A DNA stretch of 64,000 nucleotides from a virus. The notes under the pieces were generated by a model. The model saw nothing but the letters and a program-made list of their open reading frames with translations, was not told the DNA's origin and did no database searches. The stretch lies in the IMG/VR virus record IMGVR_UViG_3300015360_000025. The stretch is one strand, 5' to 3'. Of this stretch, positions 4-51,228 are shown piece by piece. Made by a program: the position numbers and the translations under genes. Every line of letters begins with the position of its first letter. Position 1 is the stretch's first letter.

Positions 4-1035
4 ATGAGACAGATCATTTTGATCTCGTATACTTCTCTGAATGCGGGTGGTGGCGTTCCACGTTGGAACCGTGACTTTGTTGCAGGATTTCCTGGAACTA
101 AACACTATTCATGGGATGACATCCCGAAAGCTCCATTGGGCGTCCAGAACGAATGGGATGGAGCCTTTGCTCTCAACATGTGGTTGCATCTGACAAAGAA
201 GGTGTCAAAGGACGACATCATCATCTCTGATGGCTTTTGGGGAGAACGACTGAGCGACCTGGGTTACAACGTCATTTCGATCGCTCATGGCATCTGGAGC
301 CACCTGACCAAAGACGATGTAGACGCTGGGAAGGATCCTGAGTTTCCTTTCCACAATGCCGTCCAGGTAAAGCACCGTCATGATCATCTGGCCCGTGGTG
401 GGAAGATCGTCGCTGTCTCCAGGTTCATCCAGGAGCAGATGAAGCTCCAGTGGGGTTTTGAATCGAGTGTGATCAACAACGCCATCGATCTCGACAAGTG
501 GAAAAGGCCGGTAGCTCGGATGCCGAACTGGACAGACTCGCGTCTGGTCATCCACGGGGTCACGACTGCCAACAAGGGTTTCGATCACATCGAAGCTGTT
601 AAGAAGGCTCTACCAAACGACGACGTCTGGCTTCTGGATGAGGCTGCCGAAAAGCTCGAACTATCAAAGGTCGACGCCCTCGCTAATGCCGATCTTGTCG
701 TCCAACCATCTGCGTACGAGGGCAACAGCTATTTTGTACTAGAGACTATGGCATGCGACGTCCCTATCGTAGCATACAACGTTGGTCTTCTTCACTCTAT
801 CTCAGTGATAGCAAAGGAGAATGGAATCGAAGCGTGTGTTGGGGCGATCATTGACAGGAAGTATCGTCGACCAGAAGAAACGGCAAAAGTTGCTAGCTTT
901 ATCCTGGACTCCGTCTGTCGTGATCGGAGTACGTATAACCCGAGGCAGGTATCCGAGCTGTTCTCGGTGAAAAGATTCCACGAGCAGTGGCGAGAGTACC
1001 TGGAGGACTATGAGCGTAATATTACGAGTCGATGA
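4..1035 (+). CDS. Glycosyltransferase, GT-B fold (GT4-like)
   Basis: N-terminal GGV motif (NAGGGVPRW), VAVSRF, INNAIDL, and C-terminal PSAYEGNSYFVLETMACDVP with the EX7E motif of retaining GT4 enzymes. Confidence 0.85.
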   Translation: MRQIILISYTSLNAGGGVPRWNRDFVAGFPGTKHYSWDDIPKAPLGVQNEWDGAFALNMWLHLTKKVSKDDIIISDGFWGERLSDLGYNVISIAHGIWSHLTKDDVDAGKDPEFPFHNAVQVKHRHDHLARGGKIVAVSRFIQEQMKLQWGFESSVINNAIDLDKWKRPVARMPNWTDSRLVIHGVTTANKGFDHIEAVKKALPNDDVWLLDEAAEKLELSKVDALANADLVVQPSAYEGNSYFVLETMACDVPIVAYNVGLLHSISVIAKENGIEACVGAIIDRKYRRPEETAKVASFILDSVCRDRSTYNPRQVSELFSVKRFHEQWREYLEDYERNITSR

Positions 1036-1660
1036 CTTCCCAGGTACGAAGCCTGAAGAATTCTGGAAACACAATCTGGATAACTTCAAGCTGTTCGATG
1101 CGGTGTTGGAGAAGTACGTCGATGAATATGTCCTTGGTGTAATCCCGAAATACACGACAGAAGAGATGATTCGTTACCTGGAGCAGAATGACAAGATCAG
1201 GGTCGCCCTCCACGGTGTGGAACACAATGAACGGTTTCCCAATGAATTCAGACCGTGGGAGACCACCGAACAGATCTTCAACAAACTTGTATCTGCCAGA
1301 CAACCTTTCCAGAAGTGTAACGGCGCGCTCGATGTGGTTGACTACATCCCTCCGCACAACGTCATAGACATGAAGACAGTCGATGCTCTGAAGTTGGCTG
1401 GATTCAAGAGAATTTATGGAGGGCCCGGATCTGATGAACACGTAATCTGGCATGCCAAGGACGTGGGATTGAAGTTCGACTACAGCCAGTGGCCGTACTG
1501 GTATGGACGTTCAGATGAACTACTGAACCGAGACAAGGCTCATCTCATGATCAACAGCAATCCTGATCGTGTCGTGACATTGCATTGGCCGTGGGAATGG
1601 AACATCGGACTTGATAACCTCGAAAGGTTCCTCGAGGAGATCAAGGGAGTACTACGTTGA
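1010..1660 (+). CDS. Polysaccharide deacetylase-like (CE4/NodB, DUF2334-like)
   Basis: LRVDDFP (DD motif 1), VALHGVEH (HxxxH metal motif), YIPPHN, TLHW. Confidence 0.75.
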   Translation: MSVILRVDDFPGTKPEEFWKHNLDNFKLFDAVLEKYVDEYVLGVIPKYTTEEMIRYLEQNDKIRVALHGVEHNERFPNEFRPWETTEQIFNKLVSARQPFQKCNGALDVVDYIPPHNVIDMKTVDALKLAGFKRIYGGPGSDEHVIWHAKDVGLKFDYSQWPYWYGRSDELLNRDKAHLMINSNPDRVVTLHWPWEWNIGLDNLERFLEEIKGVLR

Positions 1661-2694
1661 AAAAAACTCTCTTCATAGATGCCAGAAAGGGCGGAGACTT
1701 CACTCTGGACGCGGTCTGGGCTGGGTTGGTAGATCGCAATGGCTTTGAGAACATGATAGACTGGCCACCCTCCGAGAAGCACAGAGAGGGTATCCCGACG
1801 GTGACTGGAGATGTAGAACGCGATTACGGTGCAGAGCGGAGGTCCCTGTGCTACACGTCAGACCACGGACGGCTCCGCAACTACGATGCTCCGCAGATCA
1901 ACGAACTCATCAAGTCTGGACAGATTGAGAGGATCTTCATCGATGAACGAGAAGAATCGTACGTCCTCTACCTCCAACTGGTAGCCCGCTACTACGACAT
2001 CCCGGTCGTGGTTGTGGCCGGTCACGATCGATTCTTGAACACTATCCCGCAGCTTCACAAGTACTATGACAAGAACCTAGAGAAGATTTTTATGGACAAT
2101 TGGCGTCCCGAATACAATTCGTCTTCTGGTGTTTGCCCGATGTCATATGCCACAAATTTTGATCATCTATGGGATGTGTCAGAGAGGGATTCACTGCTGA
2201 ATGATAAGGTGTACGACATCTGCTTCACGGGTTATAATAGCCACGGAGATAGAGGGAAGATCATCGACCACCTTGTCGAGAAGTACGGGGAGAAGGGTAA
2301 CTGCCTCTTCGTAGAGAAGAGACCCAACACGATGGAATGTTTCTTACCAAAGCGGGAGTACTTCAAGAAGATCGCCAAGTCCAGAGTCTGTCTCAATCTC
2401 AGGGGCGCGGCCGAGTGTGGGAAGGCCCTGAGGTTCTATGAGATTCCCTATGTTGGTTCGTACATGCTCTCCCAGAGGGACCAGGCAAACCAAGTCATGC
2501 CTTTCATCTCTCGTATCCACTGCGACTACTTCACGAACATCGAAGAGATGGACGCGATGATCAAATGGGCCTTGGATAATCCAGTCGAACGGGAAGAGAT
2601 CGCACGTTGGGGTTATAGGTACGCGATGGAACACCACACTGCCCGGGCTCGTGTCGATCACATGTACTACAACCTTCGGAATGACTGGGACTGA
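1657..2694 (+). CDS. Glycosyltransferase, CgeB/Glyco_trans_1_2-like
   Basis: C-terminal YDICFTG...YFKKIAKSRVCLN...ALRFYEIPYVGSYMLS...REEIARWGYRYAMEHHTARARV matches the CgeB-like GT tail. Confidence 0.75.
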   Translation: MKKTLFIDARKGGDFTLDAVWAGLVDRNGFENMIDWPPSEKHREGIPTVTGDVERDYGAERRSLCYTSDHGRLRNYDAPQINELIKSGQIERIFIDEREESYVLYLQLVARYYDIPVVVVAGHDRFLNTIPQLHKYYDKNLEKIFMDNWRPEYNSSSGVCPMSYATNFDHLWDVSERDSLLNDKVYDICFTGYNSHGDRGKIIDHLVEKYGEKGNCLFVEKRPNTMECFLPKREYFKKIAKSRVCLNLRGAAECGKALRFYEIPYVGSYMLSQRDQANQVMPFISRIHCDYFTNIEEMDAMIKWALDNPVEREEIARWGYRYAMEHHTARARVDHMYYNLRNDWD

Positions 2695-2695
2695 A

Positions 2696-2965
2696 ATGAA
2701 GACTGTACATGTCATCGGCAACAGCCATGCGTGGTACTTTGCGGGAGCAGAGGTCGGAGTAGACGTCGAAGAAATTCTCCAGAAAGACGATCCTCGACGA
2801 CATCCGTTGATGATGTCTCTGGGAAGTGAGATAGTCGACGCTCGTGGATTTATCAAAGAAGAGTACCAGAAATATCCTGGATCACGTGTTGATGTTCACG
2901 CGGCTCCTGCTAAGGTACAATTAATCGTTCTTGAAAAACTAAAGGTGATACTTGGACAAAGCTGA
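2696..2965 (+). CDS. Short SGNH/GDSL-hydrolase-like ORF, possibly internally deleted
   Basis: ATG at 2696 directly after the upstream stop. VHVIGNSHA resembles SGNH block I and VDVH resembles block V, but the protein is only about 89 aa. Confidence 0.4.
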   Translation: MKTVHVIGNSHAWYFAGAEVGVDVEEILQKDDPRRHPLMMSLGSEIVDARGFIKEEYQKYPGSRVDVHAAPAKVQLIVLEKLKVILGQS

Positions 2966-3755
2966 TCTCTACAACCAGATGGCTGATCGGAAGTTCAAAC
3001 CGAAGGATCTCGAGCCATACGCTGGCGACAACGGTCGAGTGAACAAGGCTTTTGCTCTCTATAAGAGCGGAAAGTTGAAGTCAGGTGGAACGCATGTAGA
3101 CGTCGGAGGAGGGATAGGAGATCTTGGCTTTGCACTCCGTCAGGAGAGGCTCTTCGAGAAGACGCTCACTGTAGATATATCTGCCAAAAATCTACAGGCT
3201 GCCAGTAAGAAGGGAAACTTCGTGATGCTGGCAGACGTGGATAAAAGTGGATTTTCGTCAAACGTGTCTGATCCCGACAACTTCGGTGGTCCACCAGAAT
3301 GGACGAACGACAGCTTTGGGATGAACAGTAACAATCGGATTGATGCGATTTCTGCCCTGGACTTCATCGAACACATCATCGATCCAGGATCTTTCGCATA
3401 TCACTGTGCGTATATGCTCAAATCTGGAGGAGAGGTATTCATCAACACTCCAAACATCCAGTATTGGCGGCACATCGAAAAGTTGATATTCGATGGTCGG
3501 TTTCCTCATACATCTGGAGATCGTGAGGTATACCACGGTGGTCACCTCGCCTTCTTTACGTATCTCGATCTTTGCGAGATCTTCGGTAATGCGGGATTTG
3601 AAAAGTTCGAACAGATCAAGGACGTGGAAGGATACTGCAATCCGTCATCACTTTTCATCGGAAACATTCTGAAACCACAGAATCAACAGCAGTATACAGA
3701 GATGTGCATGAGGATGGGAAACCCAAACTTACTCTTTAAGGCGACCAAGCCTTGA
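2952..3755 (+). CDS. Class I SAM-dependent methyltransferase
   Basis: HVDVGGGIG motif I, LTVDIS, ISALDFIEHI, LKSGGEVFINTPN. Confidence 0.85.
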   Translation: MDKADLYNQMADRKFKPKDLEPYAGDNGRVNKAFALYKSGKLKSGGTHVDVGGGIGDLGFALRQERLFEKTLTVDISAKNLQAASKKGNFVMLADVDKSGFSSNVSDPDNFGGPPEWTNDSFGMNSNNRIDAISALDFIEHIIDPGSFAYHCAYMLKSGGEVFINTPNIQYWRHIEKLIFDGRFPHTSGDREVYHGGHLAFFTYLDLCEIFGNAGFEKFEQIKDVEGYCNPSSLFIGNILKPQNQQQYTEMCMRMGNPNLLFKATKP

Positions 3756-3880
3756 GTTGGCCAAAAGGTAAATCGTGGAATGAGGCTCGTCGAAAAGCTT
3801 TCGTATACCGTCCTCTTGGAAATCACACGGTACAGACAGCTTCGAGACTTCTCTCTTATCTCTCCGAGAGTTCGAAATGA
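3752..3880 (+). pseudogene. Bridging mini-ORF, NUMOD3-like homing endonuclease remnant (42 aa)
   Basis: Hand translation MSWPKGKSWNEARRKAF...SESSK*. TTG start overlaps the upstream TGA and its TGA overlaps the downstream ATG. Confidence 0.5.
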
Positions 3881-4803
3881 GGATACTCTACGGACGTTGC
3901 TTTGGGATCGGAAATTGTGTGATGGCCGTACCCGCCATCAAGGCTCTCCAGTGGAAGCCAGACACGATCGTAGACATCCTCGTTGGGGACACGTCCGATG
4001 ACGTCGGAGCCATCCAAGTGTTGTCCAAGGTGGTACAAGGTCCTGGGAAACTTTGTGTGAACAGCGCCCTCGAGCATGACTACGACGTGGCTGTGATGGC
4101 CATTCCATTTGATGGTCGCTGGCTCAACGGCGTTCACTTTCGAGCCAAGGAAGTCATGGACGGTCGGACCCGACCAGATCCGAAGACGACTGGACTCGTC
4201 TCGTGGAATGATCACGAGTCTGAGTATCAGATGGAGAACGCTAGAAAGCTCGGTTACCTTGGATCGACCCCGTCGTCTCGTTTCCTCCCGTTCACCGGAG
4301 AGGCACTTCCGAATAGGATCTATATCGGAATGGGATACAAAAAAGATCAGTTGGGTTTCTGGAAGAGCAAACACTGGGGAAACGAGAACTACGCCGCACT
4401 CATCACCGGTCTTCTTAAGAACCTCCCTGAGGACTGGAAGATCGTGACGACAGGCGATGTAGGTGATCTCCAGCTTTCCATCGCCCCAGTGGCTCGGATG
4501 GTGAACGACAAGAGGTTTGAGTTCAAGCTTTCCGCCAATTTAGATGAAGCATTCCGAGTAGTCGCCTCCTGCGGGCTATACGTGGGGAACGACACCGGGA
4601 TGATGCATGTCGCCGCCTCCTGTGGGAGGAACGTCGTCGCAATGTTCTTTCTCGAGAACTCTATCGTGAAGAGTCGACCGCTTCTCTCCAGTCAATCAGA
4701 TCGCCCCCTTCAGGAATGCCTCGTACTTGACGGCACCATAGACCGTGCCAAGATTACTCCACAATACGTGCAGACGGCCGTCGAGGTGACACTCTGTGGT
4801 TGA
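3877..4803 (+). CDS. GT9-family glycosyltransferase (ADP-heptose:LPS heptosyltransferase-like)
   Basis: GIGNCVMAVPAIKAL (cf. xIGDxxxxxPxxxxL), SKHWGNENY (cf. KxWPxExF), LYVGNDTGMMHVAASCG (cf. GNDSGPMHLAAA). Confidence 0.85.
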   Translation: MRILYGRCFGIGNCVMAVPAIKALQWKPDTIVDILVGDTSDDVGAIQVLSKVVQGPGKLCVNSALEHDYDVAVMAIPFDGRWLNGVHFRAKEVMDGRTRPDPKTTGLVSWNDHESEYQMENARKLGYLGSTPSSRFLPFTGEALPNRIYIGMGYKKDQLGFWKSKHWGNENYAALITGLLKNLPEDWKIVTTGDVGDLQLSIAPVARMVNDKRFEFKLSANLDEAFRVVASCGLYVGNDTGMMHVAASCGRNVVAMFFLENSIVKSRPLLSSQSDRPLQECLVLDGTIDRAKITPQYVQTAVEVTLCG

Positions 4804-5437
4804 GAAAGAACTGATCAAGGCTTTCAAGTTGATGGCATTAAGAAACGACGTCTTGCAGGACACACACGGGAACCTGTCTGTTTTGGCCAGCGATCAGATC
4901 TACATCAAACCCAGCGGAGTCCCATACGATGAGATCGATATCTGGTCAATCTGCAGGTTCCAGCTTCTCGAGAATGGATCAACGGTCAGCTCCAAGAACA
5001 ATGGATACAAGCCTTCCGTCGATCTGATCCACCATGCTTCTATCTACAAGAACAACCCGCATATCAAGTCCATTTGCCACACACATTCACCGTATGCGGT
5101 CGCCCATGCGATCTGTGGCCTGCCGATTGATTGCCTTTGCACAGAGCACGCTGACTACTTTGGTTGGAGAGTTCCGTGCTTGAGTTACAAAGATCTCGAC
5201 AGTTGGGGATCTGATGTGCGAATACTCGACGGAGCTCGAGCCGTCTTGCTGGAACATCACGGTGCCCTCACGTTCTCAGATGAGCCTGTGAAAGCGGTCA
5301 ATCTTGCGATCCAGTTGGAGAACGTAGCGCGGAAGAATCATCTTGCGATGACTCTCTATCCGAAGCTTCGGATGATGGCATACAATGAATCTCAGAAGTG
5401 GCATGAGAGGTACAATAATGTCTACGGACAACGGTAG
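4796..5437 (+). CDS. Class II aldolase/epimerase, L-ribulose-5-phosphate 4-epimerase (AraD)-like
   Basis: GNLS, IKPSGVPY, PSVD, HTHSPYA and LEHHG Zn-binding histidines. Confidence 0.8.
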   Translation: MVEKELIKAFKLMALRNDVLQDTHGNLSVLASDQIYIKPSGVPYDEIDIWSICRFQLLENGSTVSSKNNGYKPSVDLIHHASIYKNNPHIKSICHTHSPYAVAHAICGLPIDCLCTEHADYFGWRVPCLSYKDLDSWGSDVRILDGARAVLLEHHGALTFSDEPVKAVNLAIQLENVARKNHLAMTLYPKLRMMAYNESQKWHERYNNVYGQR

Positions 5438-5870
5438 GAAGATTTTAATCTCGTCTGATCACAACGGGAATGCCGCCCGTGCGTACATTATCAAGTTCCT
5501 TAGGGCTGACGGTTACGATGTCCAGGATCTTGGCCCGAACTACGATCAGAAGGTCGATTACCCAGAAATGGCTGCCGACCTTTGCCACGCGCTGGAGAAG
5601 ATTTACGGTGCGCGGGGCATCCTTCTATGCGGTACGGGCACTGGGATGTTGATCGCAGCCAATCGGTTTCCGCATATCCGCGCAGGATTGGCGACTGACC
5701 GAGCGACCGCCGAACTGATGCGCCAACACAACGATTGCAACGTTTTAGTTCTTGGACAGTGGCGCACCCCGTTGGGGCAGATGGACGAACTCATCAGGAC
5801 ATTCTTGACCACGCCGTTTGAAGAAGGTCGTCACATCGATCGGGTCGAATCTCTCGGTAGACTTCCATGA
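5418..5870 (+). CDS. rpiB: Ribose-5-phosphate isomerase B (RpiB/LacAB family)
   Basis: SDHNG, DYP, LCGTGTG with catalytic Cys, ANRFPHIRA, RQHNDCNVLVLG, FEEGRHIDR. Start trimmed to the ATG at 5418. Confidence 0.9.
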   Translation: MSTDNGRKILISSDHNGNAARAYIIKFLRADGYDVQDLGPNYDQKVDYPEMAADLCHALEKIYGARGILLCGTGTGMLIAANRFPHIRAGLATDRATAELMRQHNDCNVLVLGQWRTPLGQMDELIRTFLTTPFEEGRHIDRVESLGRLP

Positions 5871-6808
5871 ATGTATTGGTCATCGGGGACGTCGTCATCG
5901 ATCGGTACACACACGGCAATCGTCGGGGGATTTCCGCAGAGACCCCAACGATCGTAGCCAACTTCATCAAGGAAGACGTCTTCGTTGGTGGAGCTGGGTT
6001 GGTTACGCGGAACCTTCTACGTCTGGGAAACACGGTGACCCTCCTCACTGTTGGAAACTGCGAAGAACTCCATCCACTCATGTTGAGGTCAGCCGATCCT
6101 ATTGATAGATTCGAATCCGCAAGATTGAGTGTCATTATGACAAATAAGAACGGGTGGAAGGTTTCCGAAAAACATCGGTACTATGTCGAGCAGTACAAGC
6201 TTCTGCAATACGATCTGATCAATCCTGGAAAGTGGACTCCACATGAAGAGGACCGTTACGCCGAACAAATCATGTACCAACTTGTAGCTTTGAGTTACGA
6301 TGCGGTTGTGATATGCGACAATAGACACGGCGTGATGATCGAACATTTCGCCAGCAAAATCATCGAACGTTGCCATGTCCAGAACAAACCGGTGTACGTA
6401 GACTCCCAGGTCTCTCAGGCAGAATCAAACCATCACTGGTACAAGGGTGCCAGTTTTATCTTCATGAATGAGATAGAAGCCGATTGCGCGGCGAAGAAGA
6501 TTAAGAAACTCAAGAAGGGTGATGCCCAGCTCAACCAGCTGTCGAAGTTTCTCAAGGCAAGCATCGTTTACAAAAGAGGGGAACGTGGGGCCATCACTGT
6601 CTGCCAAGACGGGAAGACGATCGTGTCAGAAGGTTTTGAAGTAAACGCTGTCGATACGTGCGGTGCTGGTGACGCTTTCCTCGCAGCTTTCGTTCATCAC
6701 GGGAACGACCTGGAAGCTGCGAACCGGTGGGCTGCGTTGTCAACTACTTATAAGGGGACCATCGTCCCTAGGACTGAAGACTTGCATCTTCGAAAGGTGA
6801 CGCGATGA
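5867..6808 (+). CDS. PfkB-family sugar-phosphate kinase, HldE/RfaE domain I-like (copy 1)
   Basis: VLVIGDVVIDRY, ISAETP, GGAGLVTRNL, VDTCGAGDAF anion-hole motif. Confidence 0.85.
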   Translation: MNVLVIGDVVIDRYTHGNRRGISAETPTIVANFIKEDVFVGGAGLVTRNLLRLGNTVTLLTVGNCEELHPLMLRSADPIDRFESARLSVIMTNKNGWKVSEKHRYYVEQYKLLQYDLINPGKWTPHEEDRYAEQIMYQLVALSYDAVVICDNRHGVMIEHFASKIIERCHVQNKPVYVDSQVSQAESNHHWYKGASFIFMNEIEADCAAKKIKKLKKGDAQLNQLSKFLKASIVYKRGERGAITVCQDGKTIVSEGFEVNAVDTCGAGDAFLAAFVHHGNDLEAANRWAALSTTYKGTIVPRTEDLHLRKVTR

Positions 6809-7476
6809 AATTGTTACTTGACACGGCAAACATCGATCAGATCCGTCTGTTCATGCAGAGCACTATGCTGGCTGGGGTGACCACCAATCCGTCCCTCATG
6901 GCGAAGGAATCTAAGGGAGATTACGTAGAGAAACTCAAGACGATCGCTGAAGCTGTCCAAAATCAGTTGAGCGCCAGGCACCTAAGCGTTGAGGTGACTA
7001 CACTTGATCCGAATGTGATGATCGTGGAAGCCCAAACTCTCAATGATGCTCTCGGAAGAAATGGAGTTGATGTTCACATCAAGATTCCAGTGATGATGGA
7101 GACCATGAGAGTGATATCCACGCTCAGGCGAAAAGACGTTAAGGTAAATGCCACCGCTTGTATGACCGCATTCCAAGCCAAAATGGCGATGGACGCTGGA
7201 GCAAATATCGTCTCGTTCTTTTATAACAGGATCAAGGATGAAAATGAGAGTCCAGATAGTGTGCTTACGCTCTTCAATCAGATTAGAGTCAATCTAGAAC
7301 AGACGAAGATAATTTGCGGTAGCATAAGAGAACCAGACGATGTTCGGCGCTGTTTTCTTCAGGGAGCTGATTATGTAACCGTCAGCCCAGCCATTCTACA
7401 GAAGATGATCGAGCATCCTCAGACTACCAAAGCTATCGCCCAATTCCAGAAGGATATCGACTCATGGCTCAGTTAA
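6805..7476 (+). CDS. tal: Transaldolase (TalC/FSA-type, short form)
   Basis: LLLDTAN, GVTTNPSL, IKIP Schiff-base Lys, VNAT, GSIR. Glu in SVEV and Phe in SFFYNR are the transaldolase rather than FSA signature. Confidence 0.9.
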   Translation: MKLLLDTANIDQIRLFMQSTMLAGVTTNPSLMAKESKGDYVEKLKTIAEAVQNQLSARHLSVEVTTLDPNVMIVEAQTLNDALGRNGVDVHIKIPVMMETMRVISTLRRKDVKVNATACMTAFQAKMAMDAGANIVSFFYNRIKDENESPDSVLTLFNQIRVNLEQTKIICGSIREPDDVRRCFLQGADYVTVSPAILQKMIEHPQTTKAIAQFQKDIDSWLS

Positions 7477-7835
7477 CTAAGATTCCAATGGGTGGGCAGT
7501 TTCGTATGCTCCGAGGATGGGGGTATGAAACGTGGATTGAGAATCTCCCAGAGTACTGTGGAAAGATTCTGCATGTCTACAAGGGACTGCGCGGGTCCCT
7601 ACACTTTCATATGAATAAGATGGAAACTATGTACCTCCAGTCTGGAAAGGTTCAGCTTCGTTTTGTAGACCCGGAGAAGGGTACCGACTATACGATCGAC
7701 CTGAATCCTGGTGATTCGATTCTGATACCACGCGGGCAGGTTCATCAGATCATTGGAATTGAAGAGAGTGATCTCTTTGAGTTTAGCACCGTGCATGAAG
7801 AGTCAGACTCTCATCGAGTTCAGAAGGGGGACTGA
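7464..7835 (+). CDS. Cupin, sugar isomerase/epimerase-like (mannose-6-P isomerase / D-lyxose isomerase-like)
   Basis: GWGYETWI, SLHFHMNKMET cupin motif 1, GDSILIPRGQVHQI motif 2. Confidence 0.75.
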   Translation: MAQLTKIPMGGQFRMLRGWGYETWIENLPEYCGKILHVYKGLRGSLHFHMNKMETMYLQSGKVQLRFVDPEKGTDYTIDLNPGDSILIPRGQVHQIIGIEESDLFEFSTVHEESDSHRVQKGD

Positions 7836-8722
7836 TGCGTTGGAACATTGTCGGGGCATTCATCCGGAATAATCCCTTTGGGACAGAGATCGCTTTTCGG
7901 AAGGGTCTCGAGAGGATCGGAGAGACTGTGACGGCGGTGGACCCAGGTTACCCCAACCAACAGTTTGATGAAGCTCCAGACGTCACCTTGGTGTTCAAGT
8001 GGGTGGACACGGGACCGTATCGCGATAAAATCGTCTCTCTACCTGGGAAAAAGGTCCTCTACCAGGTTGATGATCTCCGTTTTCCGCACATTAAACAGAT
8101 GATGCTCGAGATGAGATCGGTGTGTAACAATGCGCTGACTTTCGATCAAGATGGAGCAAACCTTGCTCTTGAGTACGGGTACGATTCGGGGCAACGTCTA
8201 TTGTTGACTGCCGATAATCTCCTTTACCGTCATATCACCGGAATGCAGAAGGATATCGATGTTAGTTTTGTTGGAAGTCTGTCGAATGGTCCGAATCATG
8301 CCAGCCGCATGAGGATGATTCAACTTGTTAAGGGAATCCCTGGCCTGCGAGTAGTGATCGCCAGCGAGCTCTTCGACATCGGAAAACTCTGTGAGATCTA
8401 CAATCGTTCCAAGGTTGTCCTGAATCACGCGACAGATGTTGGTCAACCTTTCGGTCATGGGTTTGGGTATCAGTGTCGACACTTCGAAGCCGGGTTCACC
8501 AAGACTTGCATCCTTTCGAACAAGATTGACAACGACGAGACATTGGGATTCATACCGTTCTTTTCGAATGAGTTGGAGCTCGTTGAACGTCTTAAGACAC
8601 TTCTTAACGAACAGAAGCGCAGGGAGTTATATGCACAGTTGACTTACGATCAGCTCTATAAATCACACCTTCCAGAACACCGCGCCAAAGAGATGATCGA
8701 GTTTGTACGGAGTGTCCGGTGA
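7835..8722 (+). CDS. Glycosyltransferase, CgeB/Glyco_trans_1_2-like
   Basis: DIDVSFVGS, IYNRSKVVLN, CRHFEAG, HLPEHRAKEM. Confidence 0.75.
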   Translation: MRWNIVGAFIRNNPFGTEIAFRKGLERIGETVTAVDPGYPNQQFDEAPDVTLVFKWVDTGPYRDKIVSLPGKKVLYQVDDLRFPHIKQMMLEMRSVCNNALTFDQDGANLALEYGYDSGQRLLLTADNLLYRHITGMQKDIDVSFVGSLSNGPNHASRMRMIQLVKGIPGLRVVIASELFDIGKLCEIYNRSKVVLNHATDVGQPFGHGFGYQCRHFEAGFTKTCILSNKIDNDETLGFIPFFSNELELVERLKTLLNEQKRRELYAQLTYDQLYKSHLPEHRAKEMIEFVRSVR

Positions 8723-9312
8723 AGATCAATCTTGGGTGCGGGCCCGATTTGAAAGATGGCCACGTGAACGTCGACTTCAGGGATCTTCCAGGAGTGACGA
8801 AAGTAGATCTCTCCATATTTCCGTGGCCATGGGCTGACGATTCCGCTGATCAGATCTTGATGTTGGATTTTCTGGAACACTTCCCGTACAGGAAGACGAC
8901 TACTATCCTTCGTGAGTGTTGGCGTGTCCTGAAGATGGGTGGGAACCTCGAAGTCCAGGTTCCAGACCTCGAACATTGCGCGCGCGCTGCAGCAATGACA
9001 GGACCATTCCTGTGTAACAGGTGTGGATGGCAGTATCCGATGCACGACCTTCGGGCAGACTTCTTCATCTGCAAGCAGTGTAAGCAACCGTGGACAGAGT
9101 GTGCCCAAGCTGCCATCCACCGTTTGTACGGTGGTCAGGACTACGAAGGAAATTGGCATCACACAGCCTTCACGACTCTCCAGCTGAACAGGTTGTTGCA
9201 GGGGCACGGGTTCGAAGACATCCGCGAGCTGGAGCACGAGCACCAGTACAAGAATTGGAATTTCAAGTTTTCTGCCACAAAGATGAAAGACCTGTGGGGT
9301 GATGAACCGTGA
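8719..9312 (+). CDS. SAM-dependent methyltransferase with a CxxC...CxxC insertion
   Basis: KINLGCG, HVNVD, DFLEHF, WRVLKMGG, inserted CNRC...CKQC, LYGGQ..GNWH. Confidence 0.8.
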   Translation: MKINLGCGPDLKDGHVNVDFRDLPGVTKVDLSIFPWPWADDSADQILMLDFLEHFPYRKTTTILRECWRVLKMGGNLEVQVPDLEHCARAAAMTGPFLCNRCGWQYPMHDLRADFFICKQCKQPWTECAQAAIHRLYGGQDYEGNWHHTAFTTLQLNRLLQGHGFEDIRELEHEHQYKNWNFKFSATKMKDLWGDEP

Positions 9313-10268
9313 ACGACTGGAAAGGAAAGAACGTCCTTGTCACAGGGGCCGCCGGTTTCATCGGTGGCTGCGTAGCTCGTGAGCTTCTTGATCAAGAGGC
9401 TATTGTGACGTGTCTCATCAGGACGAAGGGAAAGAATCCGAATCTCCTGGGGGCGAAGATATTCGAAGGGGATGTGGCGGACTACGCCTTGATGTGTGAG
9501 ATCATCTCTTCGGGAGAAATTGAGTACGTCTTTCATCTGGCGGCAAACGCCATCGTCAGGGTCGGGGCTCGGGATCCGATGAACACATACCGAATCAACG
9601 TGATGGGTACGGTCGCCCTCCTTGAGGCAGTCCGTACGGTTGGCCGATGCAAGAAGGTAGTCGTGGCTTCGAGTGACAAAGCCTACGGTGATCACGATAT
9701 CCTTCCGTACAAGGAGGACATGGCACTCCAACCGAAGAACACGTACGATACTTCCAAGGCTTGCGCAGACATGATCGCGCGCTCGTATGCCCACAACTAC
9801 GATCTTCCGATCGTCGTCACACGTTGCAGCAACGTCTATGGTCCTCGGGATCCTAATATGTCGAGGATCATCCCCAACACGATCAATCGAATTCTGGAAG
9901 GCAAGAAGCCGCAGCTTTATTCGGACGTCAGCGTCATGGAGAGAGAGTTTATCTTCATCGACGACGTGGTCGTTGCCAACTTGGCCCTCGCTCTATCTGG
10001 TCCAGAGACAAACGGGGAGGCATTCAACGTCGGTAGGAACCACGCTCACATGGTTTCGACCGTGGTCGAACAGATCTCCAAGATGATGGGCTTCGAAGAC
10101 GGAGTCGAGATCGTTCCTCGCGAGCCCTCCTTCAAGGAAATCCAGAAGCAGTACATCAGCGCTCGAAAGCTCGAAGAGGCGACCGAATGGAGCGCGCGGG
10201 TCCAACTCATCGACGGTCTGAGGAAGACGATCGACTGGTATAAGGTATTCGGGAGAAGTGACCGATGA
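9309..10268 (+). CDS. NAD-dependent NDP-sugar dehydratase/epimerase (extended SDR, CDP-glucose 4,6-dehydratase-like)
   Basis: TGAAGFIG, HLAA, SSDKAYG, YDTSK (YxxxK), TRCSNVYGP. Confidence 0.9.
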   Translation: MNDWKGKNVLVTGAAGFIGGCVARELLDQEAIVTCLIRTKGKNPNLLGAKIFEGDVADYALMCEIISSGEIEYVFHLAANAIVRVGARDPMNTYRINVMGTVALLEAVRTVGRCKKVVVASSDKAYGDHDILPYKEDMALQPKNTYDTSKACADMIARSYAHNYDLPIVVTRCSNVYGPRDPNMSRIIPNTINRILEGKKPQLYSDVSVMEREFIFIDDVVVANLALALSGPETNGEAFNVGRNHAHMVSTVVEQISKMMGFEDGVEIVPREPSFKEIQKQYISARKLEEATEWSARVQLIDGLRKTIDWYKVFGRSDR

Positions 10269-11302
10269 GAGTTGCCTTCGTCGGGGTCAAGCGTAAGTAC
10301 CAAGAGTTGGCGCCTGAGTACAAAGACTTCTTCAATCAGTATCATCTGGAGCTTCCGTACTACTACGCTCGACATGGACAGAATCATGTCACGATCACGA
10401 CCGTCGATCATGATTCTCCTCCCATCCGTTTTGCCCGAGATTATTCCGATTTCCTGGAATGCCAGACGGAAGAGAAGTACAAGATCGAAGGTCGTAGATA
10501 CGATGTCGTCGTGCACTGGCGTAAGTGGTTCCCCGAGTTACGTAAAGAAGGTACCATCAATCTTCTCAACTGTCAGGATCACTCGTTCAGTCAAGAATGG
10601 AAAGACAGTGTCCGTCAAGCGATGAACGCTGGTCAGCTGCATGGAATACTCTGTTTTCCGACCTGGCACAAGCAGAATATCCACGAAGAGACTGGCATCC
10701 CGCTCGATAGGCTTTTCGATGGAGTCACCCTGGGAGTAGACACTGAAGTTTATAAACCAGCTCTCGTTAAAGATCCATTCCAGATGCTGTGGGCATCCGA
10801 TCCTGGGCGCGGTCTAACTCAAGCGATGTGTCTCGCTGCCGAACTCTTCCAGAGAGACAAGCGGTTTAGACTTCACGTCTGTGTTCCAGACTACGTCAAG
10901 ATGAACTCTTCTCCTTTCAACCACCCAGCGATCGCCTGGCATGGGTGCGTCCCGAATGGTCCGAAGCTCTGGGAGCTCTTCAACAGTTCCGGGATCCTCC
11001 CGTACACTTCTTGCTTCAAAGAGCCGTCTTCCCGGGCCCATCGGCAGGCCCAGGCGGCAGGGTGCCTGGTTCTCTACCCTCCTGGTATGGGAACACCCTC
11101 CGAACTCATCCAGCATGAACGGACGGGCATCGTGGAGCCAATCGGTCAATGGACGGAACGGATTCGAAACTTTGCCGTCCACAGAGAACGTACTGAGATC
11201 GGACCGCAGGCCCGTGAGTTTGCGATCACGGAAAACTGGGAAGTGCAGGCGCAGAACTTCAATCGTCTCATCGAAAAGATCAAGGGAGAACAAAATGATT
11301 GA
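10265..11302 (+). CDS. Glycosyltransferase, GT-B (GT4-like)
   Basis: WASDPGRGL, LYPP..GTPSELI, EPSSRAHRQAQAAG (EX7Q variant of EX7E). Confidence 0.7.
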   Translation: MRVAFVGVKRKYQELAPEYKDFFNQYHLELPYYYARHGQNHVTITTVDHDSPPIRFARDYSDFLECQTEEKYKIEGRRYDVVVHWRKWFPELRKEGTINLLNCQDHSFSQEWKDSVRQAMNAGQLHGILCFPTWHKQNIHEETGIPLDRLFDGVTLGVDTEVYKPALVKDPFQMLWASDPGRGLTQAMCLAAELFQRDKRFRLHVCVPDYVKMNSSPFNHPAIAWHGCVPNGPKLWELFNSSGILPYTSCFKEPSSRAHRQAQAAGCLVLYPPGMGTPSELIQHERTGIVEPIGQWTERIRNFAVHRERTEIGPQAREFAITENWEVQAQNFNRLIEKIKGEQND

Positions 11303-11931
11303 CATCAACGCGAAATCATATTTATCGTGTGAAGACGCGTTATGCGCTGTACCTTATTCTTGATCCATGTTCTGGTATGCCGCGATACGTTGGAATGACA
11401 ACGCGCGGGTTTCATCGGAGAACGAGTGAACATCTAAAAGCAATTCACGACAAGCGATTTAAGACACATCTTTATTTCTGGCTGAGAGTTCTTCATAGCA
11501 AAGGATTGAAACCTTTCTTCGAACTTGTCCGTTGCTTTGAGGAAAGTACTCGAGGGGAAGAAGCTCTTTGTGACGCAGAGATTGATTTTATTTCTCTTCG
11601 TTCTGCGGGAGCGGACTTAACAAATACTGCTCGTGGTGGAAAGGGTAAATCGAGTAACGGTAGAGTGCCTTGGAATAAAGGAAAGTCGGGTGTGTCAGCA
11701 GAGACAAGTGAAAAGATGCGGTCTGAAAAAGTTGGGAAAGTCTCCCCGCGGAAAGGTGTCATTCTCTCTTCGGAAACAAAAGAAAAATTGAGAGTTTCTC
11801 ATCTCGGAAAAGCTGCTTCACCAGAGACAAAAGAAAAGATGAGTTTGACCCATAGGTTAATTTGGAAAAGGAGAAAAAATGCCAGTAGATATCAACTCGA
11901 CGGACTTCATGCAGACATTCAAACTGGCTGA
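11299..11931 (+). mobile_element. Free-standing GIY-YIG homing endonuclease with NUMOD3 repeats (start may be GTG 11329)
   Basis: YALYLILDP...RYVGMT (GIY-YIG variant), conserved R..H and E/N, C-terminal PWNKGK, SAETSEKM, SSETKEKL, SPETKEKM repeats. Visibly AT-richer than its flanks. Confidence 0.8.
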
Positions 11932-12802
11932 CGCCACTGTCGGGGTGGTCGGTCATGGATTCGTGGGACAGGCGGTCGCAGAATTCTTCAAGGGAACGTG
12001 CGGAAACATCGTCATCAACGACAAGGCGAAACCGGAACTGGCGACCCTGAAGGAGGTCGTGACCCGGTCCGAACTGATCTTCGTCTGCGTCCCGACCCCG
12101 ATGCGGAAGGACGGATCATGCTACACAGGGTTCGTGGAAGAGGTGATCGCGAACATCAAGACCACCGCCCAGGAGATCAAGAGGAATTTCGATTCCTTCG
12201 TGGTCGTGGTCAAGAGCACGGTCTACCCGGGATTCATCGAAGATATGCAGAGCAAGCATCTCCCGATGAGGCTGACCTTCTCTCCCGAGTTCATTACGGA
12301 GAAGAATAGCGTCGAAGACTTCAAGAAAACAAACAGGATCATCGTAGGTGGGGATGAGGACGACGCGATGATTGTCCTGAAATACTTTCACGATGTTGAT
12401 CCAAAAAGGATCGAGGATGGTCGACGCGTCCTTCTTCAGTGCAATCCAACAACGGCCGAGATGGTAAAACTCTATGCCAACGGGATTTTGACCGCGAAGG
12501 TCATTTTCTCGAACGAGGTCTACCAGATCTGTCAGAAGCTTGGAGTTGACTTCGAAGAGGTCAGGGCAATATCAGTCCTGGATACTCGAATCGGAACGGG
12601 GCATACTCTTGTCCCTGGCCCAGACGGCCAACTGGGATACGGTGGTCACTGCTTCCCCAAAGACATCCAGAACCTCAGAGCTACAGCTCGGGTGTGCGAA
12701 GTTCCGGAGAAGCTATTTACCGCGATGATCGATCGCAATGAAGAGCTGAGAGAGAAGAAGGACTGGCTAGATATGAAAGAACGGGCTGTCACGGAGAACT
12801 GA
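11879..12802 (+). CDS. ugd: UDP-glucose/GDP-mannose 6-dehydrogenase family (lacks C-terminal domain)
   Basis: GVVGHGFVG, FVCVPTP, VVKSTVYPG, FSPEF, AEMVKLYAN, GYGGHCFPKD catalytic Cys. Confidence 0.9.
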   Translation: MPVDINSTDFMQTFKLADATVGVVGHGFVGQAVAEFFKGTCGNIVINDKAKPELATLKEVVTRSELIFVCVPTPMRKDGSCYTGFVEEVIANIKTTAQEIKRNFDSFVVVVKSTVYPGFIEDMQSKHLPMRLTFSPEFITEKNSVEDFKKTNRIIVGGDEDDAMIVLKYFHDVDPKRIEDGRRVLLQCNPTTAEMVKLYANGILTAKVIFSNEVYQICQKLGVDFEEVRAISVLDTRIGTGHTLVPGPDGQLGYGGHCFPKDIQNLRATARVCEVPEKLFTAMIDRNEELREKKDWLDMKERAVTEN

Positions 12803-13134
12803 TGCCTACGCTTGTCATGGACATGGATGGGACAATCTGCGAGCAGATGCATGGCGATGGGTATTTTATCGCCAGACCCATTCAATTCGTGATCGATAAA
12901 ATGAGATCATACAAACTCAAGGGATGGGATATTGTAATCCACACCGCCCGTGGCATGGGACGTTATGATGGAAACATCGCTCGCATCGAGTTTGAGTTTC
13001 GTTACAAGACGGAGAAGTGGTTACGAGATCACGGCGTCCCATATGATAAGCTGATCTTCGGGAAGCCTGCCGGAGACATCTACGTGGATGACAAGGGGAT
13101 AGTACCTGATGACTTTGCGACCAGAGACGCTTGA
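12802..13134 (+). CDS. HAD phosphatase, capsule-biosynthesis (BcbF/EcbF-like)
   Basis: MDMDGT motif I, HTARG, FGKP, YVDDK motif IV. Confidence 0.85.
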   Translation: MPTLVMDMDGTICEQMHGDGYFIARPIQFVIDKMRSYKLKGWDIVIHTARGMGRYDGNIARIEFEFRYKTEKWLRDHGVPYDKLIFGKPAGDIYVDDKGIVPDDFATRDA

Positions 13135-13609
13135 AAGTGAATCCTACAAAGAGCTTTGCGAATCGATTCGTGCTGAGGGTCGCAAGAAATATGGTTCCCA
13201 GGGGTACTCTCGAGTGGTCTTCGCTAATGGCGTCTTTGATCTTCTTCATTTGGGTCACCTTTCTCTCCTGAACGAGTGTCGAATCTTGGCTGGTCCAAAT
13301 GGCGCCGTTGTCGTCGGAGTGAATTCTGATGCGTCTGTGAAGAGGATCAAAGGTCCCAACAGACCCATCCTGGACGAGGTCACCCGGTGTTCCACTTTGA
13401 TCTTCATGAAGCCGGTGGATCACGTCTTGACATTCGATGAAGACACCCCACTCGAACTGGTGGAAGTTCTCCGTCCTGACGTTATCGTCAAGGGATCTGA
13501 ATACAGAAACAAGAAGGTCGTCGGTTCACACTTGGCTGTCGTGACGTACGTCGATAGTAAGGAAGGCATCTCGACGACCCAGCTGATCGAGAGGATCCGC
13601 AATGGATGA
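13109..13609 (+). CDS. Nucleotidyltransferase, HldE/RfaE domain II-like (heptose-1-P adenylyltransferase-like)
   Basis: VFANGVFDLLHLGH (HxGH), VGVNSDASVKRIKGPNRPI, FDEDTP, PDVIVKG, ISTTQLIERI. Confidence 0.9.
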   Translation: MTLRPETLESESYKELCESIRAEGRKKYGSQGYSRVVFANGVFDLLHLGHLSLLNECRILAGPNGAVVVGVNSDASVKRIKGPNRPILDEVTRCSTLIFMKPVDHVLTFDEDTPLELVEVLRPDVIVKGSEYRNKKVVGSHLAVVTYVDSKEGISTTQLIERIRNG

Positions 13610-14516
13610 ACCAAAAAAGATACTCGTGGTTGGTGATGTGATGATCGACAAGTACATCTTCGCCATGACTTCTCGTCAAGCTCCAGAGGCGCCAATACCG
13701 GTGTGGGACGAGGTGGCATATGAGCTCCGTCTCGGTGGAGCGGCCAACGTCGCTAACAACCTGAAGGCTCTGGGCGGGGATGAGGTCGAAGTCTATCTGG
13801 CGGGTATCGTTGGTTTGATCGACAAGAAGATGATCTCCCGGGCAGGCATCAACACAATCTTGTGCGCCGGCAATGAGTCGATGTACAAGACCAGGTACAT
13901 CGACTCACACAGCAAGAAGCACATGTTCCGTGTCGACAATATTCGGACATTCTCTCCAGAGTCTAAGACACATTTTCTCCGTTGCCTACAACACTTTCTC
14001 AGGGGTCACGTGTTCGATGCGGTCATCTTCTCCGACTACGATAAAGAGACCATCAATCTTGACGTGATGGAGATCGTCATCCCCACTTCCAAATTGACTG
14101 TTGTAGACTCGAAGCGGACAGATCTTTCCATGTACAAGGGTGCGCAATTGCTCAAGATCAATGAATACGAGTATGCGACACAACTTTCTCGTGGTCCGTA
14201 TCTCAACGTCGAGAGTCTGTTCGACTACGTTGTCGTAACCCATGGCTCAAAGGGCGCTGAGCTACGGCAGCATGAAGTGACAAAGAGTGATGAGAGACGA
14301 TACATGGTCCATAGCGAAAACTTCGCCGTCGACCCTGTGAATGTTCAAGACGTGACTGGATGTGGTGACACCCACACGGCAGCCATGACGTTTTCTTTAT
14401 TGAAAAACCAGGACGTCCGCTTGGCTGTTCGATTCGCCAATGCTTGCTCTAGGAATGTCGTACAGAAGTTTGGCACCAGCGTAAGTGATGTCAGCTTGGC
14501 TAGCATTGGTGTATAA
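13602..14516 (+). CDS. PfkB-family sugar-phosphate kinase, HldE/RfaE domain I-like (copy 2)
   Basis: ILVVGDVMIDKY, APEAPIPV, LGGAANVANNL, SDYDK, DVTGCGDTH. Confidence 0.9.
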   Translation: MDEPKKILVVGDVMIDKYIFAMTSRQAPEAPIPVWDEVAYELRLGGAANVANNLKALGGDEVEVYLAGIVGLIDKKMISRAGINTILCAGNESMYKTRYIDSHSKKHMFRVDNIRTFSPESKTHFLRCLQHFLRGHVFDAVIFSDYDKETINLDVMEIVIPTSKLTVVDSKRTDLSMYKGAQLLKINEYEYATQLSRGPYLNVESLFDYVVVTHGSKGAELRQHEVTKSDERRYMVHSENFAVDPVNVQDVTGCGDTHTAAMTFSLLKNQDVRLAVRFANACSRNVVQKFGTSVSDVSLASIGV

Positions 14517-14707
14517 TGGGAATACATGAGGGGATTATGAAACTTAGCGAAGACGTTTTGGTAGAGATCATCGACATCGTACGCCAGGGGATTGCCGAAG
14601 GAAAGGACATCTCTGAACTCTTGAGAAAGATGGAGCTCGGCGTGGAACCCGACAGCGAGCTCGGTCCAGACGACAAGATCTTTCTCGAAAAGAATCGAGC
14701 GTACTGA
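14516..14707 (+). CDS. Small hypothetical protein
   Basis: ORF coupled at both ends (TAATG, TGATG). Alternative start at 14537 with an SD-like GAGGGG. Confidence 0.5.
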   Translation: MGIHEGIMKLSEDVLVEIIDIVRQGIAEGKDISELLRKMELGVEPDSELGPDDKIFLEKNRAY

Positions 14708-15269: not shown

Positions 15270-15278
15270 AGGGGAAAA

Positions 15279-18240: not shown

Positions 18241-18271
18241 TATCCATTCGGTAAGAATCTAAGAGGTTGTC

Positions 18272-51220: not shown

Positions 51221-51228
51221 TCTCCTCA

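Follow-up and report, generated by a model that had tools for sequence, protein, structure and literature searches.

A phage locus predicted to make and use its own nucleotide-activated higher-carbon sugar

The viral record IMGVR_UViG_3300015360_000025, analysed here as one stretch of 64,000 nucleotides (the window), carries at positions 4-14516 of the plus strand an unbroken chain of 20 open reading frames (ORFs), with the start and stop codons of neighbours overlapping by 1-13 nt at most junctions. On balance, the enzymes of this locus probably produce a nucleotide-activated higher-carbon sugar for the phage's own use and put together a tailored oligosaccharide in the cytoplasm. Together with its relatives it appears to hold a complete, self-contained cassette in which two textbook enzymes of the ADP-heptose pathway are predicted to be replaced by unrelated small proteins. 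The core cassette comprises a metal-binding mini-cupin, a small phosphatase of the haloacid dehalogenase (HAD) type, an HldC-like nucleotidyltransferase and an HldA-like kinase (kinase 2). An accessory block encodes an AraD-type epimerase, an RpiB-type isomerase, a further kinase (kinase 1) and a transaldolase, and both sets are embedded among glycosyltransferases and tailoring enzymes (Table 1). Gene families were assigned with Pfam and NCBIfam and, further, with PHROG, sequence searches of the PDB and the ESM Atlas. All 19 genes listed by an earlier sequence-only reading of this DNA are present on the plus strand where it placed them, with Pfam and NCBIfam families in agreement; a homing endonuclease and a 104-amino-acid (aa) ORF had been left out.

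The locus belongs to an uncultured T4-like myophage, in which it forms a genuine and conserved module. A search of IMG/VR with kinase 2 recovered 18 loci, 15 of them from the window's own clade; these 15 have the same genes downstream and, on the longer contigs, the same upstream order, at 45-77% protein identity. The junction running from kinase 2 through small ORFs and a sigma factor to the baseplate genes is the same across at least 15 IMG/VR loci of the clade, and a second sweep with a cupin alignment added the clade members L092-L096. A locus search with the first CgeB-like glycosyltransferase as sole query found nothing, and megablast of the first 15 kb against cultured phages gave no match. 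The possibility that the block is a chimeric assembly or host DNA, raised with the sequence-only reading, is ruled out by the conservation of these junctions in many independent contigs, at least nine of which in IMG/VR share both the gene order and the junction to the late-sigma and baseplate genes, and the locus is phage-borne; the search for syntenic clusters which that reading had proposed yielded a conserved, operon-like locus in the IMG/VR relatives. The G+C content is even, at about 0.5, across the boundary between the locus and the virion module, and this evenness and the homing endonuclease inside the locus also count toward a phage origin. The window's cupin is recorded on a contig of 187,020 bases.

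The core cassette and its predicted pathway

In the proposed core route the metal cupin would isomerise a ketose phosphate, most likely sedoheptulose-7-phosphate, to a manno-type aldose phosphate, the job of GmhA in the ADP-heptose pathway. Kinase 2 would then phosphorylate C1, the mini-HAD would remove the distal phosphate (the job of GmhB), and the HldC-like transferase would make the nucleoside diphosphate (NDP) sugar, probably an ADP-sugar; the substrates, carbon number, nucleotide and order of steps are those that we infer. The likeliest product, judged from protein families, is an ADP-heptose-like sugar. It is favoured because of the kinship of the activating enzymes to HldA and HldC, the conserved GT9 glycosyltransferase beside them and the synthesis of ADP-heptose in vitro by viral enzymes of this type, as reported for Tang et al. 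(2024, Science) in PMC11461863 and PMC11573728.

The cupin has the canonical HxH..E..H metal-site positions (His47, His49, Glu54 and His94), which are invariant in 36 homologues, and its AlphaFold (AF2) model has a pLDDT confidence score of 95.9. Among its fold matches are D-lyxose isomerases and a phosphomannose isomerase of 110 aa from Thermococcus kodakarensis. Conversion of sedoheptulose-7-phosphate to D-glycero-D-manno-heptose-7-phosphate is chemically the same step as conversion of fructose-6-phosphate to mannose-6-phosphate, and a cupin resembling mannose-phosphate isomerases would therefore be a sensible stand-in for GmhA. The metal cupin is the likeliest predicted substitute for that enzyme. 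No ORF of the locus has a Pfam SIS match, and tblastn with E. coli GmhA finds nothing in the 64-kb window (E<=10) or in 79 of 80 viral cupin loci. The positive control of that search, a gene next to a cellular hldE (L084), was recovered at 2.8e-35. A search for SIS_2 and cupin domains in two distant complete phage genomes that have only the nucleotidyltransferase and kinase gave no match and is uninformative.

The same cupin family (45-54% identity) occurs in deltaproteobacterial genomes between a WecA-like transferase and a GDP-mannose 4,6-dehydratase, a position that fits a manno-type isomerase. On Mb-sized cellular contigs (L057 at 5842-9365, L041, L044, L047 and others) a short-chain dehydrogenase/reductase (SDR) gene directly follows the cupin; in L057, the one such locus scanned with Pfam, it is a GDP-mannose 4,6-dehydratase, and the cupin gene comes after one for a WecA-like phosphoglycosyl transferase. 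No HldA/HldC-type kinase or nucleotidyltransferase was found near the cupins of L057 and similar deltaproteobacterial loci. In cellular genomes with the cupin the HldE homologues are located elsewhere, which shows no tie between the two in those genomes.

The mini-HAD has the DxDGT motif and matches a Vibrio protein of known structure (PDB 1xpj) at E 5.5e-19, whereas GmhB structures are matched only at E 0.15-0.2. The HAD phosphatase of the sequence-only reading is thus present, as a 110-aa protein that is not GmhB-like. It may nevertheless take the role of GmhB though its family differs. A literature search on PDB entries 1xpj and 9iqw turned up only a paper on phages RB69 and DLP3, which is considered below.

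The nucleotidyltransferase scores 135.3 bits against TIGR02199 (cut-off 181.5), and its best PDB match is 5x9q (E 3e-22), deposited as a putative cytidylyltransferase, which we take to be HldC from Burkholderia. The enzyme carries both the HxGH and the GISTT motif and lacks an arginine at the STTR5 position. An arginine there is linked to the use of CTP or UTP by Tang et al. (2024; PMC11573728, PMC11461863), and since it is absent an ADP-sugar is the best guess for the product. Kinase 2 scores 170.7 bits against TIGR02198 (cut-off 345), is closest in the PDB to Burkholderia HldA (4e84, 8e-18) and keeps the GxGD catalytic motif. The activation pair, phosphatase and GT9 enzyme that had been read from the sequence are therefore in place, as judged from NCBIfam and from PDB matches to 4e84, 5x9q and WaaF. 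The proposed heptose chemistry as a whole is supported in part: HldA/HldC kinship and GT9 support it, but GmhA is missing and the phosphatase is not GmhB, and the textbook pathway is not what is encoded. The predicted route would work like the heptose pathway, but two of its four steps would fall to enzymes from outside that pathway.

The core enzymes recur far beyond the window's clade. The cupin was found in at least 573 IMG/VR contigs, and of the best 80 viral cupin loci, 65 encode a mini-HAD, 61 a nucleotidyltransferase and 59 a kinase no more than 10 kb from the cupin. The mini-HAD is usually directly beside the cupin, the usual order of the cassette being nucleotidyltransferase, kinase, HAD and cupin. 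Prochlorococcus phage P-SSM2 is among the carriers; the window's cupin is 52% identical to its gp312 and the mini-HAD 40% identical to its gp311. The RefSeq names of these two P-SSM2 genes (L023; NC_006883.2, 9716-10397) look wrong. PSSM2_311, named phosphoheptose isomerase, is a 114-aa mini-HAD phosphatase with no Pfam SIS match, and PSSM2_312, a 118-aa protein named cysteine dioxygenase, is the sugar-pathway cupin.

The accessory block and competing sugars

The accessory block would feed the same machinery as the core route. Its transaldolase would make the C3-C4 bond of heptulose-7-phosphate (or octulose-8-phosphate), the AraD-type enzyme would invert C4, RpiB would interconvert ketose and aldose or supply ribose-5-phosphate, and kinase 1 would phosphorylate the product of the block. 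The best NCBIfam matches of the AraD-like protein are L-ribulose-5-phosphate 4-epimerases. It keeps the equivalents of Asp76, His95/97, Asp120 (in HADYF) and His171 of E. coli AraD, and because of these residues it is classed as an epimerase-type rather than an aldolase-type enzyme, as far as conserved positions can tell. Enzymes of the AraD class cleave the C3-C4 bond and close it again to invert C4; this is the very bond that transaldolase makes, so together the two enzymes would give a ketose phosphate with the 'wrong' configuration at C4. RpiB reaches 146 bits against NF004051 (cut-off 135). Kinase 1 scores 118.3 bits against TIGR02198 (cut-off 345), has HldA 4e84 as best PDB match (1.9e-12) and keeps the GxGD motif, and the transaldolase matches TIGR00875 at 3e-43, under the cut-off.

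Within the window's clade the four genes of the block are either all present or all absent, always between GT9 and the cupin. They are present in the window, L088/89/91, L090, L093, L094 and L095 and absent from L008, L092 and L096. In the block-free loci GT9 and the cupin are separated by 25 nt (L008), about 0.6 kb (L092) or an SDR gene (L096). Loci with and without the block alike carry GT9, the cupin, a CgeB-like glycosyltransferase, a methyltransferase, GT4, the truncated dehydrogenase, the nucleotidyltransferase and kinase 2. The mini-HAD is kept in both kinds, though tblastn gave no match to it in L095 and L096.

The same enzymes are found in a second lineage. L046 is a 116-kb contig binned as 'Pelagibacter TMED166' and is most likely a pelagimyophage, given PMC7029224. 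It has the run GT9, RpiB::nucleotidyltransferase, kinase, AraD, cupin, transaldolase, mini-HAD, cupin and GT4, in which RpiB is fused to an HldC-like nucleotidyltransferase (L046 4177-5046; 286-289 aa). At least 120 clusters of this fusion, 54-98% identical and all with both Pfam domains, were found; many come from Tara Oceans marine metagenomes and they lie on contigs of up to 364 kb. The fusion was in none of the cultured phages searched. The gene fusion and the all-or-none behaviour of the block argue that it belongs to the sugar pathway and is not an ordinary pentose-phosphate auxiliary set, and they bear out the earlier proposal that pentose-phosphate-type enzymes are tied here to a nucleotide-sugar pathway.

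In a maximum-likelihood tree of the kinases, kinase 1 groups with the kinase of the fused cassette (L046), and kinase 2 falls in the other clade, together with cellular HldE kinase domains and kinases of the P-SSM2 type. Support is 100/99 for both clades, and two branches are long. Because the two kinases fall in separate clades, they probably take different sugar phosphates, as far as phylogeny can indicate. The glycosyltransferase set is unchanged between loci with and without the block, which suggests that the block may contribute to one and the same end product or to a close epimer of it.

Several observations weigh against a heptose pathway. All equivalog-level NCBIfam scores in 4-14516 are under their cut-offs; the two models that pass, NF004051 and TIGR00689, are of the subfamily type and match RpiB. 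By its scores RpiB looks like an ordinary ribose-5-phosphate isomerase, which points to pentose chemistry, and the mini-HAD is of the family predicted to act on arabinose-1,5-bisphosphate in RB69 and DLP3. The fold matches of the cupin are generic, oxalate decarboxylase and the CapF epimerase/cupin domain ranking as high as the isomerases, and the pairing of the cupin with GDP-mannose 4,6-dehydratase or another SDR fits an NDP-4-keto-sugar epimerase equally well. The host may supply heptose-7-phosphate, the GmhA search having covered the 64-kb window, and the constancy of the glycosyltransferase set gives the second kinase no evident role.

The main rival to heptose is an octose. An LmbR-like transaldolase would put a C3 unit from fructose-6-phosphate or sedoheptulose-7-phosphate on ribose-5-phosphate supplied by RpiB, giving octulose-8-phosphate; the AraD-type enzyme would epimerise and the cupin isomerise it before phosphorylation, dephosphorylation and nucleotide activation to an NDP-octose. 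The claim of the sequence-only reading that the transaldolase supplies sedoheptulose-7-phosphate is accordingly one of two readings, the other being such a lincomycin-type transaldol step onto ribose-5-phosphate. The lincosamide pathway has the same five enzyme categories and a ribose-5-phosphate acceptor (PMC4351081, PMC5854111). RpiB and the transaldolase always occur together in one four-gene block with only kinase 1 between them, RpiB scores as a true ribose-5-phosphate isomerase, and kinase 1 belongs to a clade apart from the HldE-type kinases. An octose is nevertheless doubtful: the likeness to the Lmb proteins is one of functional categories taken from the literature alone, the adjacent GT9 belongs to a family known only with heptose donors, and the core cassette occurs without transaldolase in three clade lineages and in P-SSM2-type loci. 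A smaller sugar is less probable again and is considered unlikely. Here the bisphosphate route would activate a hexose or pentose, for example mannose-6-phosphate by way of mannose-1,6-bisphosphate and mannose-1-phosphate to NDP-mannose, bypassing phosphomannomutase, or ribose- or arabinose-5-phosphate as in the NDP-arabinose pathway of RB69 and DLP3. The resemblance of the cupin to phosphomannose isomerases and its place beside GDP-mannose dehydratase in cellular genomes would suit this reading, as would the 1xpj family of the mini-HAD and the best matches of RpiB and AraD, which are pentose-phosphate enzymes. However, the kinase and nucleotidyltransferase match best the heptose-specific HldA, HldC and HldE, GT9 is conserved beside the pathway in both lineages, and the RB69-type pathway has a SIS isomerase and unrelated kinase and nucleotidyltransferase folds.

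Two further explanations concern the purpose of the genes. The transaldolase, RpiB and AraD-like proteins could be ordinary auxiliary metabolic genes that boost pentose-phosphate flux for nucleotides, like cyanophage talC. Transaldolases of the talC type are common in T4-like cyanophages, and the glycosyltransferase set is unchanged where the block is absent, yet we regard this as highly unlikely: an HldA-like kinase is invariably part of the block, all four genes come and go together at exactly one site, between GT9 and the cupin, and an unrelated lineage fuses RpiB to the nucleotidyltransferase and has the transaldolase and AraD in the same compact cassette. Least credible of all is that the locus serves base hypermodification, glycosylating phage DNA and not protein or lipid. 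T4-like phages do glycosylate their DNA, and RB69 and DLP3 likewise encode an isomerase, a kinase, a 1xpj-like HAD, a nucleotidyltransferase and GT4-like transferases. DNA is an unlikely target here because there is no hydroxymethylase or hydroxylase at the locus; the ORFs at 1-18.7 kb have no hydroxymethylase, hydroxylase, dCTPase or dNMP kinase domain, and five glycosyltransferases with methyltransferases and a deacetylase far exceed the known DNA systems.

Glycan assembly and genomic surroundings

A heptose-type sugar would be used by GT9 and four other transferases of the GT-B fold, and two methyltransferases, a deacetylase-like protein, an SDR and a truncated dehydrogenase would help to build and tailor the glycan. 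The count of five glycosyltransferases made from the sequence holds, since the product of 10265-11302, which has no Pfam or PDB sequence match, is placed in GT4 by the ESM Atlas (0.99 by features; TM score 0.81-0.85 by structure), where many of the clusters are viral. GT9 has WaaF (1psw) as its best PDB match and keeps the NDTGxMHxAA donor-binding motif; the match is confined to the C-terminal donor domain, the acceptor domain being divergent. The leftmost GT4-like gene is conserved in L008, L088, L090 and L092-L096, and a homologue of the DUF2334 protein in L022 also matches Polysacc_deac_1. The SDR matches dTDP- and CDP-glucose 4,6-dehydratase models of NCBIfam at 1e-42 to 1e-48 and the heptose 6-epimerase model TIGR02197 at 3.5e-30; it is found at this position in L092-L094 and is absent from L088, L090 and L008. 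The two methyltransferases and the deacetylase-like protein suggest that the glycan is O-methylated and at some stage contains an N-acetyl sugar.

The dehydrogenase keeps the catalytic GGHCFPKD motif and lacks the whole C-terminal domain. The sequence-only label of a UDP-sugar dehydrogenase is correct as to family, but the domain that binds the nucleotide sugar in UDP-glucose dehydrogenases is missing, and the full UDP-glucose dehydrogenase label is rejected for this reason. The short form is conserved: alignments in relatives cover about 306-315 aa of sequence for the 307-aa query, and the next gene follows closely. Because the domain is absent and the short form is kept, the substrate is probably not a standard UDP-hexose, on the evidence of domain architecture.

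No flippase, polymerase, ligase or initiating phosphoglycosyl transferase was found in 4-14516, and the enzymes of the locus have no hydrophobic segment typical of a membrane span. Virion proteins are one candidate acceptor. The locus abuts virion genes, GT9-like enzymes also heptosylate proteins (AAH/TibC), and mycobacteriophages glycosylate their own capsids. A previously undescribed, GmhA-independent route to an ADP-heptose or octose of unusual stereochemistry, with a cupin isomerase and a mini-HAD in place of GmhA and GmhB, a non-canonical higher sugar made by transaldolase, AraD-type 4-epimerase and RpiB, and five soluble glycosyltransferases coating the phage's own virion proteins with a methylated oligosaccharide, is a tentative and rather improbable combination; if true, it would give the first example of a T4-like virion that carries glycans and whose phage encodes the sugar supply. 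The core of the host lipopolysaccharide (LPS) is the other candidate, as soluble GT9 and GT4 enzymes with no need of a lipid carrier would fit assembly on the cytoplasmic face. Remodelling of the host surface is also the published guess for cyano- and pelagimyophages (PMC7029224).

The locus very probably runs beyond the left edge of the window, because a relative encodes, in the 8 kb on that side, a 1041-aa GT4+GT9+GT2 fusion, a GT2, another GT4, an SDR and another methyltransferase. The fusion protein (L022 1594-4719) is encoded just upstream of the point that matches the window's left edge, and such upstream glycosyltransferases in relatives agree with the earlier suggestion of a leftward extension. 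The homing endonuclease is free-standing and inserted between the second GT4-like gene and the dehydrogenase, its 3' end overlapping the annotated start of the latter by about 50 nt. No relative gave a tblastn match to it, and the genes on either side of it are direct neighbours there.

On its right the locus adjoins a T4-like virion module, as had been noted. It is followed by three small ORFs and a gp55-like late sigma factor, all conserved with the locus (14516-15953, plus strand), and by baseplate wedge genes. The genes further downstream encode a tail-fibre-like protein, the large terminase, a gp23-type major head protein and the portal, for which Flavobacterium phage immuto and Microcystis phage Mel-JY01 have counterparts of about 40% identity. 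One of the small ORFs between kinase 2 and the late sigma gene (14707-14934, 75 aa) has two CxxC pairs, resembles a zinc ribbon and is present in all relatives. Another (14829-15269) has one strong hydrophobic segment. In the region of the major head protein (62001-64000) the G+C content rises to 0.61, as against about 0.50 elsewhere, and a plus-strand ORF of 403 aa at 61147-62409 is mirrored by a minus-strand ORF of 420 aa. There is no tRNA in the 64-kb window.

The single occurrence of the T4 late promoter TATAAATA is on the wrong strand and at chance level, and scans for sigma-70 promoters and terminators gave nothing above shuffled sequence. An A/T-rich element, (C/A)YTTA(Y/G)(A/C)G, is found in several gaps before structural genes, 15-35 nt before the start codon; it may be the late promoter of the clade, the T4 consensus being absent there, and the motif is highly degenerate. 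The locus runs without a gap into the late-sigma gene, whose product must precede late transcription, which weakly hints at early or middle expression of the locus.

Table 1. Predicted genes of the locus and adjoining features of the window
Feature	Position	Strand	Assignment or remark
GT4-like glycosyltransferase (GT-B)	4-1035	+	Pfam Glyco_trans_1_4 1.4e-08, Glycos_transf_1
DUF2334, polysaccharide-deacetylase-like	1010-1660	+	Pfam DUF2334 1.6e-08
CgeB-like glycosyltransferase 1	1657-2694	+	Pfam Glyco_trans_1_2 7.7e-11
ORF, 104 aa	2651-2965	+	fills gap 2694-2952; no Pfam or PHROG match; may not be a gene
S-adenosylmethionine-dependent methyltransferase 1	2952-3755	+	Pfam Methyltransf_23 2.9e-15; in only some relatives
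GT9 (heptosyltransferase family)	3877-4803	+	Pfam Glyco_transf_9 PF01075, 42.4 bits (cut-off 22)
AraD-type class II aldolase-fold 4-epimerase	4796-5437	+	Pfam Aldolase_II 4.4e-36
RpiB-type sugar-phosphate isomerase	5385-5870	+	Pfam LacAB_rpiB 1.4e-43
Kinase 1, PfkB / HldA-like	5867-6808	+	TIGR02198 3.5e-34
Small TalC/FSA-type transaldolase	6805-7476	+	Pfam TAL_FSA 6.7e-41
Metal-binding mini-cupin	7464-7835	+	candidate ketose-phosphate/aldose-phosphate isomerase in place of GmhA
CgeB-like glycosyltransferase 2	7835-8722	+	Pfam Glyco_trans_1_2 2e-10; in all clade relatives
S-adenosylmethionine-dependent methyltransferase 2	8719-9312	+	Pfam Methyltransf_11 7.4e-06; conserved in clade
SDR, NDP-sugar 4,6-dehydratase/epimerase	9309-10268	+	Pfam Epimerase, GDP_Man_Dehyd 6e-53; variable gene
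Second GT4-like glycosyltransferase (GT-B), 345 aa	10265-11302	+	ESM Atlas
Free-standing homing endonuclease	11299-11931	+	Pfam NUMOD3, PHROG 314 (phrog_314)
UDP-glucose/GDP-mannose-dehydrogenase-family enzyme, short	11879-12802	+	N-terminal and central domains only
Mini-HAD phosphatase, 1xpj family, 110 aa	12802-13134	+	DxDGT motif
HldC / HldE-domain-II-like sugar-1-phosphate nucleotidyltransferase	13109-13609	+	TIGR02199 1.3e-39
Kinase 2, HldA / HldE-domain-I-like, PfkB	13602-14516	+	TIGR02198 4e-50
Late sigma transcription factor, gp55-like	15279-15953	+	PHROG 234
Baseplate wedge genes	18295 onward		downstream of late sigma factor
Gaps with A/T-rich element	18241-18294, 32287-32333, 51221-51330, 55643-55716, 60397-60444, 61125-61188		

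Relation to known systems

Supply enzymes are seen among phage glycosyltransferase genes here, as the sequence-only reading stressed, but the arrangement is not new in outline: 'LPS' or glycan gene islands of T4-like cyano- and pelagimyophages and functional viral NDP-heptose enzymes are already known. The literature searched held no description of a cupin and a mini-HAD as the missing first and third steps, nor of the RpiB fusion, the AraD/transaldolase block or the large syntenic glycosyltransferase set. The window itself contributes the two-kinase, two-module layout and the natural variants with and without the accessory block, and no other locus examined here has as many linked glycosyltransferases. 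The predicted pathway is directly testable with four to eight purified proteins. The cassette is common, as the number of viral contigs with the cupin and its abundance among marine metagenome proteins indicate, and, if true, a new way of making an activated sugar of seven or eight carbons would be relevant to phage-host biology in ocean and soil. It could bear on the masking of phage receptors or the coating of virions, and on the pool of ADP-heptose-type molecules sensed by animal immune systems.

A close biochemical model is the ADP-heptose pathway (GmhA-HldE-GmhB-HldD), which shares with the predicted route the logic of ketose phosphate to aldose phosphate to 1,omega-bisphosphate to 1-phosphate to NDP-sugar; the kinase and nucleotidyltransferase are homologous, and the locus has a GT9 transferase beside them. 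The locus differs in having no SIS-type GmhA, a 110-aa mini-HAD of the 1xpj type in place of GmhB and no clear HldD, and it adds the cupin, RpiB, the AraD-type epimerase, the transaldolase and the second kinase. The role of the viral NDP-heptose enzymes is called unsolved in PMC11461863 and PMC11573728, and a commentary on Tang et al. (2024) has the phosphatase absent in viruses. In contrast to that set, said to be without a phosphatase, the present locus carries a candidate in the mini-HAD.

The 'LPS gene' island of P-SSM2 (gp309-312) has the same four-gene cassette of nucleotidyltransferase, kinase, mini-HAD and cupin. Such islands of cyanomyophages and the host-recognition cluster of pelagimyophages (PMC7029224) are likewise found in T4-like phages, close to tail or baseplate genes, and also contain glycosyltransferases and a UGDH-like gene. 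The window matches them in its T4-like portal, terminase, capsid and baseplate genes and in the cassette common to P-SSM2, and its clade has, beyond these features, the AraD-RpiB-kinase-transaldolase block and far more numerous glycosyltransferases and methyltransferases in a syntenic set.

In the lincosamide octose pathway, according to PMC4351081 and PMC5854111, the transaldolase LmbR adds a C3 unit to ribose-5-phosphate, and the isomerase LmbN, the kinase LmbP, the phosphatase LmbK and the nucleotidyltransferase (guanylyltransferase) LmbO belong to the route, whose later steps lead to GDP-octose in lincomycin biosynthesis. Compared by description, in both systems a transaldolase would open a route dedicated to a higher-carbon nucleotide sugar, and the later steps would be those of an isomerase, a kinase, a phosphatase and a nucleotidyltransferase. 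The lincosamide route differs as an actinomycete antibiotic pathway with a GDP-sugar, and no AraD-type epimerase, RpiB or GT9 is reported there. An NDP-arabinose pathway for DNA arabinosylation is encoded by phages RB69, DLP3 and HY126 (PMC13326640). It shares with the locus a phage-encoded bisphosphate route, a 1xpj-like HAD phosphatase and GT4-like transferases, but it uses a SIS-type arabinose-5-phosphate isomerase, unrelated kinase and nucleotidyltransferase folds and a linked dCMP hydroxylase, none of which is present at the locus, where the kinases and nucleotidyltransferase are of the HldA and HldC type.

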